From assembly GCA_963514005.1 (NCBI GenBank), contig OY740808.1, positions 22,258,001 to 22,322,000 of the forward strand: a stretch of 64,000 nucleotides of DNA, read 5' to 3'. The notes below the pieces were generated by a model. The model worked only from the letters and a program-made list of their open reading frames with translations, made no database searches and was not told the DNA's origin. Shown piece after piece: positions 1,716 through 48,341 of this stretch. Numbering within the stretch: position 1 is the first letter of the stretch; the number at the start of each line of letters is the position of its first letter. The DNA comes from Raja brachyura (taxonomy: Eukaryota). Made by a program: the position numbers and the translations under genes.

Positions 1716-1790
1716 AGGGTGGCATGAAGGCAGAGCAGTAGACCTGCCTTTTACAGCACCAGACACCCCGGTTCACTCCTGACTGCAGTC
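1716..1790 (+). mobile_element. HE1-like SINE, 5' half (split by the hAT-like insertion; continues at 4632-4715)
   Basis: tRNA-like head with B-box ggttcactcc; the V-domain resumes at 4640 (tgtcagtatggagtttgtacgttctc). Confidence 0.75.
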
Positions 1791-3414
1791 AGGGCTGCCA
1801 ACATTGGGTGAGAGTTGGGAGTGAGAAATTCTGTGAGATCAAGCCCAAGGGAGCGTAGCGACCGAGGGGGGGGGGGGGGGGGGGGAGGAATGGTGTGGTA
1901 CGAGCTTTTGCATTTTACAGCTTGAAATTGTACAATCTGGTGCATACTGTAGCGAGTCTTTTAACTTACACTTGAATCCAATATTTATGTTTTAAATTGG
2001 ATTAGTTATGAATAAGGTTAGGCTGAATTACATTCCACAGTAGAGCCAGGCTCTGATCAACAGGTGCAGCACACGAATGATCTTAGTGTATTCATGTATG
2101 GAAATCAGATTATAATCAAGCACTTGGCCCATGTTGACAAACCTGGGTCTCACTGCACACCTGATACTACTCCTACCCTGACTCCAGTTGCGTACCTTCT
2201 CTCATTCCTGACCCTGAGTCCAGCCTTACACCTGGCCCCCTATTCTACCCTGATCATGGCTACTTACCTGCTTAGGTTCTCAGTGCTGAACACTCCCATT
2301 GTCCCAGCTTTGACTGCACACCTAGTACTATTCCAGACCTTGAGTCTTGATGCACACTTGGCCTTGCTCCTAGCCCCTCTGCATTGACAATATATCTGGC
2401 CCACACATAAAGCCCCATATCTGACCCCCTGGACTTAACCTATTACGTTCAAGTCCACAGGTGCTTATCTAATGCGGTAATCTTTTGTGAGGCACTTCAC
2501 GGACCAAATTTTGTATAACAAAATTTGCTACATCCATTGGCTTCATTGTTATCTAAAATGCTAGTTATTTTGTCAAAGAAGTCATCAATTTGTTGAACAA
2601 AATTTCTCATCCATAAAATTATACTCACTCGGCGGTATAAATATTCTGTTACCATTTCCTTCATTTTCCTAACAATCAGTCCTGAAGTCATTTTTACCCC
2701 CAATATTTTCAGCATTTTGCTGTCTTCCTTTCAGCTGGGACTTTTCTGAAAATCAAAGTCATATATGCAAAGCAATAACAATATATATTTAAACAATAAT
2801 ATTCTATTTAATGTGATCTTGAGAGTACATAATATTTTCTGTGGTATTCATAACACAACAATGATGCATTGTTTTGATTGCACCCACCAACATGCATACA
2901 TTATTATATTACAGTTAATATGCACCGAGGGCAAATTTGTGCTCCAATGCTCCCCATTCCCAATTACTTTTACATTGAAATCCAAGTGAAGTTTAAATAG
3001 CATTAGAAAAATAAAACCTCCGGAATGGATGATATTCATTACGTGGTTGGTTGGGGTCAGTATCAGCACAATTACTATATTAAATGTTCTGGTTCAAGCT
3101 AAAACTAAAGACAAACAATAACCTCCTCACACATTCCCCTGCAAGTATCTCTGTCACTCCTTTAAAATATGTCCCTTCTTTGAAAAAGCTCTTAAACATC
3201 GCATCTGAATCAGTTTCCAACTGATTACACTCCTTGAGGATGTTCATCTACATGTTCAATTAATAAAACAACGAGATTGGGGACATTTCTATTCCACCTG
3301 TCAAAGGAATTTGTGGTGGGGGGGGGGGGGGGGGTTAGAAATAGTGTGGTAAACAAACACCATGCATGAATGCTGCAAAATCAAGTGGTTGAGTTTTTTT
3401 GCCATATACTCAAG

Positions 3415-3750
3415 CATAGAAAATAGGTGCAGGAATATGTAATTCAGCCCTTCGAGCCAGCACTGCCATTCAATATGATCATGACTGTTCATCTAAAATC
3501 AATACCTCTTTCCTGTTTTTTTTCCCATGTCCCTTGATTTCGTTAGCACCAAGAGCTAAATGTAACTCTCTCTTGAAAACATCCAGTGAATTGGCCTCCA
3601 CTGCCTTCTGTGGCAGAGAATTCCACAGATTCACCACTCTCTGGGTTAAAAAAGTTTGTCCTCATCTCAGTCCTAAATGGCCTACTCCTTATTCTAAAAA
3701 CTGTGATCCCTGGTTCTGAACTCCCCCAACATCGGGGACATTTTTCCTGC
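3415..3750 (-). mobile_element. CR1 LINE 3' end nested inside the hAT-like element
   Basis: Matches the young CR1 copies at 15893, 37272 and 57344, including the catagaaaataggtgcagga tail. Confidence 0.85.
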
Positions 3751-3856
3751 AGTTACAGTAAGAGAAAATCTATCAGGCATGCAGGATGCTTTCTCCAACC
3801 ACCCCCATTTGAAGGCCACTATCTTCCACTGCTTCTACCCAGTGCTTGGTACCTAC

Positions 3857-4011
3857 TTCCAGCAGCCATTGGTTGTCCTCCTGGAAGAACCGAGCTGCAG
3901 CCTGGTCTGGGATGGTCACCAGGGCGAATTGGGTGCAGAGACTCTCACGGCAGCAGCGCAACTCTTCCGAACCTCCGACGGCCCGGGACTCTTGCACTGA
4001 GGCTGCTCCAT
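3857..4011 (-). pseudogene. TDP2: TDP2-like exon-1 fragment (UBA-like domain) inside the transposon
   Basis: RESLCTQFALVTIPDQAAARFFQEDNQWLLE aligns ungapped with human TDP2 RRLLCVEFASVASCDAAVAQCFLAENDWEME as recalled (13/31 identical). Followed immediately by a phase-0 donor GAA|gtaggt. The Kozak ATG at 4011 is 1 nt out of frame, and no downstream TDP2 exons were recognised. Confidence 0.65.
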
Positions 4012-6075
4012 GGCCGGAGCTGCAGCGAGCGACTAGCCAGCCCCGGCTCCCCATCCGCATCTGCTTCTGCTTCCGTCCCTTCCTCCGCCCCGGCTCTCCA
4101 ACACCCACGACCAGGTTGCTCAGAGCACAGCAGCACCTCGTCCAAAGCCGGAGACATTGAAACATGTCTCGCCAAAAAAGTGCTCCTCCCCCCCAGCCCC
4201 CCCCCCCCCCGGCTCCGCGGCCCATTAACCTCTCTCCTTCCGCTCGCCGGCCTTGCTTATGTAAGCCGCTTCCTGCAAATCCTTACATTCCGACTGCTGC
4301 CAGGAGCAGGACATGGGCTCACTTGCTGCGCTGGGTGACACTCATCCACTGCCCAGTCCGTGTCTTTCAATGTAAATTTGCATGGGGACGGTTTTGGAGG
4401 TGTGTGACGGTTCGTGAGAATAATGAGAATAATCGTGAGAGTGAGAATAACAGAGAATAAGAATGCTGCTGTCTTGTCAACAGACACGCACACAAGCAAT
4501 TGATATTAGTTTTGAAATTCTCTTTGATCACAGAATTTCTCACCGCAGAGCATGCAAAATTCTGTGATCAGCGTGAGAATTGGGTGAAATGCGTGATTCT
4601 CACGCTCAATGCATGAGAGTTGGCAGCTCTGCTGCGGTCATTGTCAGTATGGAGTTTGTACGTTCTCTCTGTGGGCCGCATTGGTTTTATCTGGGTGCTC
4701 CTGTTTCCTCCCGCAAATATCAAACAAGGCCATAGCTTTAAAGTTAGAGGGATAAAGTTTAAAGGAGATGGCAGGGCAAGTTCTTTATACGGTGCAACAC
4801 GCTGTCAGGAGAGATTGTGGAAGCAGATACAATGGTGGTATTTCAGAGGCTTTTAGATGGGCACATGGATATGCAGGGAATGGAGGGATATTGATCATGT
4901 GAATGCAGCAGAGATTAGTTTAGCTTTTCATCCTGCCAACTAATGTACATCATGTTCCAAAGCACACATCAATGGTTCGATGGTGTTTTTAACGCACTGT
5001 GAAATTCCTTTCTTATGTACAGTCCAGTAAACCATTGCCATACCTAAACACATCCCCAATTAGCAAGGTGTACAGAAATAGTCTACTGAGCTTACATGCA
5101 AGAGGTGCCATGTTTTGGCATCGTTTTCAAAGTCCAGTCCGCGCTCCAGTTCGTACGAGCGGTGCCCGATCCAGGCGAGCCCCAGGCTGCTGTGTACCTC
5201 CAGCCATCGCCTTTCTTGGGCACGGCGTCCCTCTCCTCCCTCCGAAACAACATTTTCCCTTCTGTTATCAGGCTTCTGATAAGCTAGGGTACCTTCCGAT
5301 TCACCTCCACCCCAATGCGGACATTGGATTTTGTCTCTGGAACTGACGCACTACAATACTGAGAAATATATTCTGCACACTGTTCTGCACACTGTATTCT
5401 CCCCCTTTTGCTCCACCTATTCTACTTGAGTTTGATGATTGTATTTATGTATAATATTATATGTATGGATAGAATGCAAAAGGCAGCTTTTCACTGTGGC
5501 AATTTTCACGTGGGAATAATTAACCTAAACAGAAAGCTGCATTTGCTGTGAGAACAAAGATTGATGCAGCTTGCCCTGGAATGCAGTGATATTTAGTACC
5601 AAAAGAGTGACCGTTTGGTTTCCCATTAAGCCACACAATGCAAGGTGGCACTGATGTAAGCTGAGCAGAGTTTTATACCAGTGGTTGGCAAAAGCATTGT
5701 TTCAATTGGCCTGCTGATCTCTGGAAAATGCCCACAAGCGTCGGGGCTGTCCACTGCAGCGGACCTAATCTGCGAGTTTAGAAGAGTGTCTTCGACCTTC
5801 AAGCTCGCAGCATGGTCGACACATGGTCCTAGGAGGTCCTATGAGGTCACTGGAACTCTCCTTCATGCTCGAGGGAAGTTCCCGAATACTCGCGGCCTCA
5901 GCTGGGTCGCGGAAACATTTTCAGCATGTTGAAAACATTTTCCGCGAGTAAAGTTTGGTTGGCATGGTTCTTTATAACTCATAGTGCAGTGGAGTGGGCA
6001 TTTTGATTGGCTCATTGGAGTTTTCAAGACCAAGGGAAAACCGACCGGTAGGTAAAATGCCCGCTAAACTTTATA

Positions 6076-7343
6076 ATTTATATTACTAAAAGCCTGATCT
6101 TGACCACTTCCTGTTGTTTTGTATATTGATTTTAGAAACAACGCTGCCACTTACGGCTGTGATTTTTGGCCATCTCACTCAGAGTCCCCCTCCGCTGCGC
6201 AGGACAAGAGGATTTTTCCCATCGATTAAAAATAAAAGAGTTATTAGTGTTTAAAAAATGTTGAGATTCTCTCTCCTGAAGGCCAAGCCCCTTCCAGAGG
6301 GACTATAAAACCCGGAAGTGTTGAGTGCCTCAGTCAGTCGGTCTCTGCAAGATGGGGGAGCGAGAGGGTCATGTCTGTGCTGTGAATTACACTGAACATA
6401 TGTCTACTAAACTGTGAATCTGGTTTTACTGACCTTGAGTGCCCTCAATGTGGTTTGAAAATGAAAATGTAGTTGGTTTGAAAAAGCAAAGCAAATGGTT
6501 GGTGGTGGTTGGTTTGAAATAAAGTCTAAACTTGACAACCTCCTGTTTGCACTGTATATTGATTTTAGATAAAACGCTACCACTTGTGGCTGTGATTTTT
6601 GGCCATCTTACTCAGTCCCCCTCCGCTCATCAGGTGCAGAGGATTCTGCCCATCAATGAAAAATAAAAATGTTATTAGTGTTTAAAAAATGGTGAGATTC
6701 TCTCTCCTGTCAATCACACCATGAAGGCCACACCCCTTCCAGTGGGATGGGGATTATAAAACCCGGAAGTGTGGGTGTGNNNNNNNNNNNNNNNNNNNNN
6801 NNNNNNNNNNNNNNNNNNNNNNNNNNNNNNNNNNNNNNNNNNNNNNNNNNNNNNNNNNNNNNNNNNNNNNNNNNNNNNNNNNNNNNNNNNNNNNNNNNNN
6901 NNNNNNNNNNNNNNNNNNNNNNNNNNNNNNNNNNNNNNNNNNNNNNNNNNNNNNNNNNNNNNNNNNNNNNNNNNNNNNNNNNNNNNNNNNNTCAATTGAA
7001 CACACAATCTCCACTGAACTGTGAGTGTGGTGTTTTGTAGTGTTTTGTGTGGTTATAAGGTGGTTGTATGGTGGTTTCACCCTGCATGAAATGGTAGGAA
7101 ACTGTATTTGAATTTGGTGGCCTTGCACCCTGTATGAAATGGTATGAAACTGCATTTGAATTTTGTGGCCTTGCACCCTGTATGAAATGGTATGAAACTG
7201 CATTTGAATTTGGTGGCCTTGCACCCTGCTTGAAATGGTACGAAACTGAACTTGAATTTGGTGGCCTTGCACCTTGCTTGAAGTGGCATGAAACTGCACT
7301 TGAATTTGGTGGCCTTGCACCCTGCTTGAAAGTAACCTACTAG
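6076..7343 (+). mobile_element. Putative non-autonomous Helitron-like element with internal duplication and 48-bp tandem array
   Basis: Starts tatattactaaaag and ends CTAG (7340-7343). ~230-bp internal direct repeat (6098-6325 / 6530-6775); 5-6 copies of gcaccctgtatgaaatggtatgaaactgcatttgaatttggtggcctt at 7077-7330. Spans the gap; no 3' hairpin seen. Confidence 0.4.
6780..6991. other. Assembly gap (212 N)
   Basis: Run of n. Confidence 1.
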
Positions 7344-45600: not shown

Positions 45601-47185
45601 CAAATGTTTTAATTGATTCCTAGCTGCTCCGGTAGAATTCAACTCTCCTCTCAGTCATTAATACAATCCAAGTCCAGCAACATAACCAATATACTATCCA
45701 TTCCTATTTCTGTATGAACAAGGGACTGTGGATGCTGGTTTACAAAACATGAGCAGAAGTGCAAGAGTAACTCAACTCAGGCAGCATCTCTGGAGAACAT
45801 GGATAGGTGACCTTTTGAGGAAGGGTTCCAACCCGAAACATCACCTCTCCATTTTCTCCAGAGATGCTGCCTGACCCATTGAGTTTAACCAGCACTTTGT
45901 GTCCAAATCTATTTCTTGTACAAATATACTTTCACAACTTAGTTAAAGAACATTTAAGCCACCATCTTTATCGTAAAATGGTATTAAAAGACAATTGGTT
46001 TGCCTAATCTTCTAACGTTGTCCTAAATATTACTTTGAGAGAATAAAACAAAATATTACAGGGCCCAAATTTAATTTCCATATTTTCTTTGTCATTTCTC
46101 ACTCGTATTCCATTTTTCAAAATTAAAATTCTTGTTTCCACGCTGTACTCTCGCTAAAACTCTTAATTCACTTCCTATGGTCTGTGCCTGGGACAATACA
46201 CTTGTTGTTCTATGCATATAAATACTAATACAGCTGTGTACACTTTATCTATTTATAAAGACAAATTTCCCAAGTGATTTTCAATCCTTCCCAGGAACAT
46301 CAGCGATTAGTCCACCAACACCCTGGGACTCTCCCTTCATGCGTTACTATTGAAATGGTTCCATTCTGTCTCCATTGCCTCTCAGTCTTCCTGTCAAAAC
46401 ACATTAGACAGCACTTTGTGGAAACAAGGAACTGCAGATGCTGGTTTACGCAAAAGGACACCATGCTGGAGTAACTCAGCAAGTCAGGCAGCATCTTTGG
46501 AGAACGTGGATAGGTGACCTTTCAGGTGGGGATGCTTCTTCAGACAGAATGATGAAGTGTCCCGACCCAAAATATCACCTGCGCATGTTCTCCGGGGATG
46601 CTGCCTGACCCGCTGAGGTACTCCAGCACTTTGTGTCCTTTAAACAGCACTTTGCTGTGTGTTCAACAGGCACGTGCGGTGAGGGATAAATGTTAATCAA
46701 CATTGTTGTAATTTCCATCTAACAATGACAGAAAAAGATCAATTAAAGTCAAAGGAATTTGTCAAAAGAAAATTGTGTGTAGTAATCACTCAGTGTTCGT
46801 GACTGAAACATTTTCTCCTCAATAAATGTACGGGCTTTGCATTGGCTGCCAATGATTGGCACCATTTATTGCTTTGTTAATCAATGTCTGGTTCAGTTGC
46901 CTGATAACACCCGGGAAGAAACTGCCCCTGACTCTGGAGGTGTGCGTTTTCACACTTCTATACCACTTGCCCGATGGGAGAGGGGAGAAGAAGGAGTGAC
47001 CGAGGTGAGACTCGTCCTTGATTACGCAGGAATATGTAGAATTGTGATGGAGGAGTGTACATTTTTATGGGAGGGGGGGTGTATAGAGAATTGTAAATGG
47101 TCTATTGTTGCCTGATGGCTGTTCCTATTTTATGCATGGTGTCAGGTGTTGTCTATTTCTGTTAATACGTTTTGTCTCTTAACAG

Positions 47186-48341
47186 AGTTCCCGTTCCTTA
47201 TTCCTGCTCCTACAAACCTGTGCATCCCAGGAATGTGCCCCAAATAAATAACACGTATTCGACGCTGGAGCAGAGCAAAGCCTGCACTCCCAAGGAGGAC
47301 ATCATGTTCATGAAGACCCACAAAACGGCCAGCAGCACTATCCTCAACATCCTCTTCCGTTTTGGTCAGAGGCACCGGCTGAAATTTGCTTTTCCCAATG
47401 GCCGGAACGACTTCTACTACCCATCCTTCTTTGACAGGAGCCAGGTGAAGGACTACAGGCCGGGCACTTGCTTCAACATCATCTGTAACCACATGAGGTT
47501 CCAGAGTGAAGAGGTCCACAAGTTGCTCCCTGAAGACACTGTCTACTTCAGCATCCTCAGGAACCCTGCTTATTTATTTGAATCGTCCTTCCACTACTTT
47601 GGTCGTGTGATCCCTTTGACCTGGAAGATCAGTGGGGAGGACAAACTCACCGAATTCCTCAGGGAACCTGACCGATACTATGATCCGAATGGCTTTAATT
47701 CCCATTACTTGAAGAACTTGTTGTTTTTTGACTTTGGTTATGACAATAACTTAGAGTTTGGTGACCCCAGAGTAGAGAAGTACATCAAAGCCATTGATGA
47801 ACGATTCCAGTTGGTGATGCTTCTTGAGTACTTTGACGAGTCGCTCATACTCCTGAAGGATGTGATGTGTTGGGATATGGACGACATCCTGTATTTTAAG
47901 TTGAATATAAGGAAGGATTCCACCATCTCAAGAATGAACGGAGAGCTATATGAAAAGGCGACGAGATGGAACCGGATAGACACCATGCTGTATGGATACT
48001 TCAATGCTACGTTCTGGAGAAAGGTGAGGCAGTATGGCTTCGAACGCATGCAGCGTGACGTGGAAGAACTGCGCCAGCGCAACGATCACATGCAATCCAT
48101 CTGCATCGACGGCGGGCGGCCGGTGGATGCAAATGCCATTCAGGAGGCGTCCTTGCAGCCGTGGCAACCTCTGGGGGAGCGCTCCATCATGGGCTACAAC
48201 CTGAAGAAGAACATTAGTCGAAAGCATAGAAAACTCTGCAGGAAAATGCTCACTCCAGAGCTACAATACTTGACTGAATTAGGGGTTAATCTATGGATAA
48301 CAAAGTTATGGTCCTACATCAGGGACCTGTTCAAATGGTAG
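47186..48341 (+). CDS. GAL3ST1: Galactose-3-O-sulfotransferase 1, coding exon 2: catalytic domain
   Basis: Acceptor tttgtctcttaacag| ends at 47185; GA+A restores Glu in frame. Contains the 5'-PSB motif FMKTHKTASSTILNILFRFG, FAFPNGRNDF, the 3'-PB region LRNPAYLFESSFHYFG and the C-terminus MLTPELQYL..LGVNLWITKLWSYIRDLFKW*, all collinear with human GAL3ST1. Total CDS 1281 nt = 426 aa. Confidence 0.97.

Follow-up and report, generated by a model that had tools for sequence, protein, structure and literature searches.

A decayed TDP2 5' fragment, likely a dead passenger of two nested inverted-repeat elements in the skate Raja brachyura

Results

The stretch of Raja brachyura DNA analysed here (the window, 64,000 nucleotides of contig OY740808.1) contains a decayed 5' fragment of the gene TDP2, which lies in a small inverted-repeat element that is itself nested in a larger one. 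I hold with high confidence that this fragment is a likely dead passenger that spread through cut-and-paste transposition, the transposases coming from elsewhere. A first-pass annotation of the sequence had described it as an orphan TDP2-like first exon, but it turns out to be one of about 1,236 transposon-borne copies.

All parts of the captured piece are read on the minus strand. The coding remnant of TDP2 exon 1 (3857..4076) closes with a frame ending at 3857 (...RCCRESLCTQFALVTIPDQAAARFFQEDNQWLLE / ...ESLCTQFALVTIPDQAAARFFQEDNQWLLE), which bears out the LCxxFA-type pattern noted in the first-pass annotation and directly precedes the splice donor GTAGGT (3856-3851, feature 3851..3856), identical to that of the native gene. 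It is followed by intron 1 (3423..3850) with the 3' tail of a LINE at about 3750-3410; this tail, which I take to be CR1 by name, is also present in the native intron. On the other side lies a piece from upstream of the TDP2 ATG (4077..4160), likely 5' UTR and some 48 bp shorter than the native sequence. The native gene was found at C2:140,267,827-140,287,554 with seven exon matches in order, and a stretch of this locus, L049, was used as reference. Native exon 1 ends ...WLLE at the same GTAGGT donor, and the start of exon 2, preceded by AG, is in phase 0, so that the position of intron 1 agrees. The captured stretch is collinear with L049:4684-5807, including donor, intron 1 and its repeats; the window copy matches the native 5' end at 78% over 745 columns and 86% over 57, the latter being the upstream piece against L049:4684-4740, with matches resuming from L049:4789. 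As donor, intron and LINE tail came along, the capture was made from DNA, and the earlier view of a genomic rather than retro-processed copy stands.

The identification as TDP2 is likewise upheld, the best PDB match of the window peptide being the human TDP2 UBA chain 6q00_B (E 0.027), with NSFL1C p47 ranking below it (E 0.93). Among longer sequences, a protein search with an open-frame copy returned two with a name, both TDP2, from Rhinoraja longicauda and Leucoraja erinacea, and the Leucoraja TDP2 protein is 83-98% identical to the genome's own TDP2 in five of six later-exon matches. The Pfam check gave a divided answer: the decayed window peptide matched no family, whereas native exon 1 aligns to positions 2-29 of the 43 in UBA_4, with an E of 4e-4 that falls under the cut-off. 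Intron 1 splits the UBA-like domain, and the copies therefore carry only this part of the profile; the exon 1 remnant in the window holds just the first two thirds of the domain.

The window copy is decayed. The native first ATG has become ACG (4076-4074), and a gap of 25 nt relative to the native exon shifts the frame. The ATG at 4011 is indeed 1 nt out of frame; in-frame methionines further upstream do exist (4054, 4060 and 4165), but they are mere by-products of the frameshift. The proposed origin of RCCR by CpG decay of RRRR holds for one cysteine only, which arose by a CGC>TGC change, as the native sequence reads RRCR. At 18 of 155 sites the window copy is changed, more than most sampled copies. 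A TDP2 gene would need the whole UBA-like domain and the EEP catalytic domain, the two parts of TDP2 described in PMC11369425, and the window copy, with exon 1 only, its start lost and its frame shifted, was rejected as one.

The first-pass annotation also noted GC-rich sequence upstream and took the divergent ATG at 4313 for a possible ACOT13 start, in which case a bidirectional TDP2/ACOT13 promoter would have been captured. Human TDP2 has ACOT13 upstream (PMC11369425), and a head-to-head arrangement was found at the native skate locus too: a reading of the native flank revealed an ACOT13-like exon 1 on the minus strand, with its start at L049:3653. The only PDB entry that it matches is 4ord_A, THEM2, with residues 1-28 aligned to 1-28 (E 0.061); a PF03061 profile search did not find ACOT13 and gave one match, on another contig. 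However, L049:4684 is where the captured sequence sets in, some 1,030 bp short of the ACOT13-like ATG and about 145 bp before that of TDP2, and window 4161-4400 has no match to L049:3300-6000. The GC-rich stretch above 4160 is transposon arm and unrelated repeat. The ATG at 4313 does read MGSLAAL, but it runs into a stop after 20 codons, is not similar to the native locus and sits in a separate multi-copy repeat piece within the outer arm (4228..4374, minus strand, 92% to consensus 244-390). This piece also contains the site where the inner element inserted, and 801 matches to its uninterrupted form were counted genome-wide (control 0). Capture of ACOT13 sequence is thus refuted, and I give the bidirectional promoter next to no credence.

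The larger, composite element is non-autonomous, has terminal inverted repeats (TIRs) and occupies 1790..4631 on the minus strand (2,842 bp here, about 3.7 kb in intact copies). It is bounded by the outer left TIR CAGAGCTGCCAAC (4619..4631, minus strand), with TCTCAC/GTGAGA subterminal repeats inward to about 4420, and by the outer right TIR CAGGGCTGCCAAC (1790..1802, plus strand). The target-site duplication at the element's left end, CTGCGGT (4632..4638, plus strand), matches its other copy, CTGCAGT (1783..1789, plus strand), at six of seven positions, and the boundary at 4631 is common to 8 copies with unrelated flanks. The window composite shows 87% and 91% identity to a 14-copy consensus of 3,681 bp, in whose list of open reading frames no transposase-length frame was present; the outer right arm (1803..3358, minus strand), also without a transposase frame, is 85% identical to an empty host element (L282). 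At the junction 3358..3359 about 780 bp have been lost in the window copy alone; this deletion joins consensus 1288 to 2069 and took the rest of the captured intron together with the right end of the inner element.

Outer elements with both ends numbered 26 (15 TDP2 carriers and 11 sisters), and 20 of these show a duplication, of 6 bp in 11 cases, 7 bp in eight and 8 bp in one. The remaining six have none, three of them with a doubled left end. Two loci (L148, L149) were dropped, having been fetched at places without an end motif, and a left/right pairing of 3,272 bp at L180 on C3 was excluded from the duplication count, its right end being doubtful. Distinct target duplications were seen in 10 of the 15 TDP2-carrying composites with both ends. 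The outer left 34-mer has 278 exact matches in the genome; the TDP2 piece directly follows the left end in 5 of 30 such matches, and other cargo in the rest. Sister elements of 1.6-3.3 kb (L130-L145) have the same outer ends and other cargo, in which there are an internal motif resembling an end and, on the opposite strand, a site resembling a GT donor.

A 21-mer from the exon end gave 1,237 genome matches at up to one mismatch (control 0), one of which is the intact native TDP2 gene, on a different contig from the window; as this probe catches 34 of 40 copies in hand, the true copy number may be nearer 1,450. A DNA search with the exon region returned 3,197 candidates, 40 of which were scored, with 76-88% identity and on many contigs. 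The TDP2 protein matched later exons at one locus only (C2:140.27-140.29 Mb), and the remaining 110 of 113 scored matches correspond to the N-terminal exon-1 part. These numbers bear on the notion that the window holds a one-off genomic duplicate, the orphan first exon of a TDP2 paralogue, with which the genomic order of exon, donor and intron would agree. Against it stand the 1,237 matches, the absence of any matched later TDP2 exon near the window, and the TIRs and target duplication around the window copy, with flanks unrelated between copies. Dispersed copies with distinct duplications refute this notion, which I regard as having practically no chance of being correct; the window copy is one member of a transposon-borne family.

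The inner element is about 1.35 kb long (CATGGGCCGCGGAAC...GCTCCGCGGCCCCTG) and carries about 1.1 kb of TDP2: the upstream piece, exon 1, the donor and intron 1 with its LINE tail. Its left TIR and short arm, of the CATGGGCCGCGGAAC type, lie at 4161..4226 (minus strand), with the first base mutated in the window copy; the left end is thus at 4226, and the right end went with the deletion. A 5-bp duplication was present in 12 of 14 standalone family members with both ends (10 perfect) and in four of five standalone TDP2 carriers (L023, L029, L032 and L216, not L304). Exon 1 was present in 8 of 30 loci found by the inner left end, most of the others being sisters of 0.3-0.9 kb without TDP2.

In composites the right flank of the inner element is GTTCA. 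One copy (L027) has GTTCA on both sides, most composites lack the left one, and L282 is an outer element that lacks the insert and has GTTCA only once, that is, an empty host copy. Composites made up 26 of 30 copies in the exon-probe sample, the other four being without the outer arm. Of 9 standalone copies 2 still have the exon segment at its native length, compared to 0 of 47 composites. In standalone copies the match to the native sequence reaches as far as L049:5807, up to about 90 bases of intron more than in the composite consensus, where it ends at 5718. In a tree of the captured segment, 5 of 52 branches were starred and the native sequence fell among mainly standalone copies at 80/84; as this tree is poorly resolved, it lends the order of capture before nesting weak support. 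In some copies (L036, L056, L060) a 19-nt unit from the 5' part of the captured exon has expanded into long tandem arrays.

Sequence change was followed in 30 copies, exact probe matches on contig C1, a sample which leans young. The non-synonymous share was 0.678, compared to 0.705 +/- 0.025 in a neutral simulation with analyst-set transition rates, and 19.5% of CpG sites were changed vs 4.5% elsewhere. In this sample the copies changed neutrally with strong CpG loss, which would imply methylation. Within 156 nt before the donor 11 copies are broken and 19 unbroken; the GT of the donor is part of the probe, and its retention in all 30 is therefore no evidence. In 18 of the 30 (L199-L228) the donor reads GTAAGT instead of GTAGGT, mostly among members of a subfamily whose left end is short or doubled, which may be a founder effect.

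PolyA reads of another, related organism cover exon 1 on the native stretch at a depth of 12-18 per orientation and are not assignable to the window copy. They run through the donor without start pile-ups, and no splice joint at the donor was seen among the 15 shown of 82. The allele of the copies at L049:5110 is present in 8 of 12 and 10 of 15 reads of this polyA run. Over exon 1, contigs from another organism's run comprise 37-41 different pieces. Three protein records of near length, all unnamed, are read-through products of copies. Together, contig pieces and protein records make it likely that the TDP2-carrying family is common to other skates. Protein searches of longer and near-length sequences found no chimeric proteins, which is weak evidence.

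That the window copy itself was co-opted as a promoter, an enhancer or an alternative first exon could be argued from its GC content of 63%, its CpG observed/expected ratio of 0.64 and its kept donor. However, this ratio is below the native 0.90, the first ATG is gone, the frame is shifted and 18 of 155 sites are changed; the reads of the related organism, which cannot be tied to this copy, are thin, in both orientations and continuous through the donor. I consider co-option of this copy highly improbable and a dead passenger likely.

Discussion

The observations amount to a relay of two transposons. A short element making 5-bp duplications first took up about 1.1 kb of genomic TDP2; its product is present in the genome, and the route was likely the repair of a break or gap, or a template switch onto the TDP2 locus. 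Gap repair and template switching are both discussed in PMC8277862. The inner element moved alone, as the distinct 5-bp duplications of its standalone copies show, and one copy entered the GTTCA site of a larger non-autonomous element. The composite in turn spread with the distinct 6-7-bp duplications observed and gave rise to most copies, followed by the neutral change and strong CpG loss seen in the sample, the latter presumably through methylation. Both elements lack a transposase and would need the enzyme in trans. Because parent, standalone carrier, empty host and composite are all found in one genome, the order of capture and spread can be read from it, and what became of 1,200 copies of a splice-ready first exon is open to testing.

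Capture by end bypass from a neighbouring copy was rejected, as the 60 kb around native TDP2 contain no inner-element arm, and no outer terminus either; a donor copy could have excised. A degenerate motif resembling the outer end occurs in intron 1 of the ACOT13-like gene (L049:3325-3346, minus strand), 1.35 kb from the capture boundary; it was missed by sensitive BLAST and may be due to chance.

The names hAT5 and hAT6 stand for hAT families whose duplications measure 5 bp and 6 bp, respectively (Kapitonov and Jurka 2007, as cited in PMC12730594). The inner element is very probably hAT-type and the outer element probably so; by duplication length (5 bp in 12 of 14 for the inner, mostly 6 bp for the outer) they are likely hAT5-like and hAT6-like. 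Unlike the families described in PMC12730594, the outer element also makes 7 bp and once 8 bp, and neither end pair is tied to a transposase. Membership in hAT5 and hAT6 is only likely, since 69 of the 150 listed hAT-domain loci were checked and in none of them did either end pair (CAGGGCTGCCAAC for the outer element, and CAKGGGCCGCGGA) enclose a transposase. A young hAT family with frames up to 793 aa (L248, C32:24,778,626-24,781,718), ends CAGGCACGTGCC and 8-bp duplications has near-identical copies and was possibly active recently; it is not the partner.

P elements have CAG...CTG ends and make 7-8-bp duplications. The outer element has such ends and some duplications of this length, P-type transposase genes are present in the genome, several of them with an outer-type end that lies 1-1.5 kb upstream of the domain, so that a P-type rather than a hAT-type transposase might have moved the outer element. 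On the other hand, 11 of the 20 duplications measure 6 bp, and among 29 P-type (PF21787) loci, 15 of them extended, no gene was bracketed by either end pair. In the P loci the outer-type end lacks a partner beyond the gene and its flank does not differ from copy to copy, and it therefore looks like an old insert in a P element. I regard a P-type source as rather unlikely and prefer the hAT-type assignment. Among P-type loci, a decayed family (L154, L161, L169, L174) contains, upstream of the catalytic domain, a solitary outer-type end with GA-rich sequence after it; a similar piece with a short frame, which I take to be THAP-like by its motif, lies inside a TDP2 element (L027:4717-5270). L180 (C3:19,710,281 onward) has an unbroken P-type transposase frame of 700 aa (PF21787) and may be a domesticated gene; a standalone TDP2 carrier lies about 0.9 kb upstream of this frame in opposite orientation, with no shared ends.

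Helitrons have no TIRs and make no target duplication; as both are present here, gene capture by a Helitron was ruled out. A counterpart in scale is such an element, HelibatN3 of Myotis lucifugus, which holds NUBPL's promoter together with its 5' UTR, exon 1 and part of intron 1 in about a thousand copies (Thomas et al. 2014, PMC4224331). Cargo kind, scale and a vertebrate host are shared with this rolling-circle element, from which the skate carriers differ by their TIRs and target duplications.

In kind, the family corresponds to the multicopy Pack-TIRs of Tan et al. 2021, and it shows the four features by which these are recognised: ends around host sequence, a parent found outside such ends, a kept intron and distinct duplications. 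Like them, it is a non-autonomous TIR element with the GC-rich 5' part of a host gene and an unlinked parent (PMC8277862). That survey of 100 animal genomes describes multicopy gene capture by cut-and-paste elements as rare, and low-copy in vertebrates, with four multicopy cases (1.4%), among them Pack-hAT-N8_XT, a carrier of the CAPSL 5' UTR on three chromosomes; the words 'shark' and 'cartilaginous' are absent from its main text. The skate family differs from these cases by some 1,200 copies, two stages and two nested elements with different duplication lengths. Rice Pack-MULEs, as described there, share the DNA-level capture of GC-rich 5' ends with introns and the sisters with the same ends and other cargo, and differ by long TIRs and 9-10-bp duplications from the short TIRs, 5-7-bp duplications and vertebrate host seen here. 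In the journal literature searched, I found no report of a TDP2-carrying skate family. Gene capture at such scale by cut-and-paste elements seems rare in vertebrates; the multicopy Pack-TIR kind is already known, and what sets this family apart is the copy scale, which matches that of the bat Helitrons, and the relay of two elements.

A more far-reaching idea is that this relay scattered some 1,200 ready-made cassettes of 5' UTR, ATG, half a ubiquitin-binding domain and a splice donor through skate genomes, and that some copies, not the one in the window, now serve host genes as alternative first exons or promoters. The unbroken 156 nt in 19 of 30 copies and the GTAAGT donor in 18 of 30 bear on this idea, which I put forward tentatively, as a possibility I would not bet on. 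If true, exon shuffling by TIR elements would truly supply a vertebrate with new transcripts. In practical terms, both gene annotation and the mapping of reads at TDP2 will be led astray by the copies.

Elsewhere in the window, a 391-codon open frame (47166-48338, plus strand) matches galactose-3-O-sulfotransferase (PF06990, E 6e-148) and is the sole host gene exon seen among the window's long frames, and a 48-nt tandem array of five copies and a direct repeat spaced about 430 bp occur at 7027-7331 and 6120-6747.
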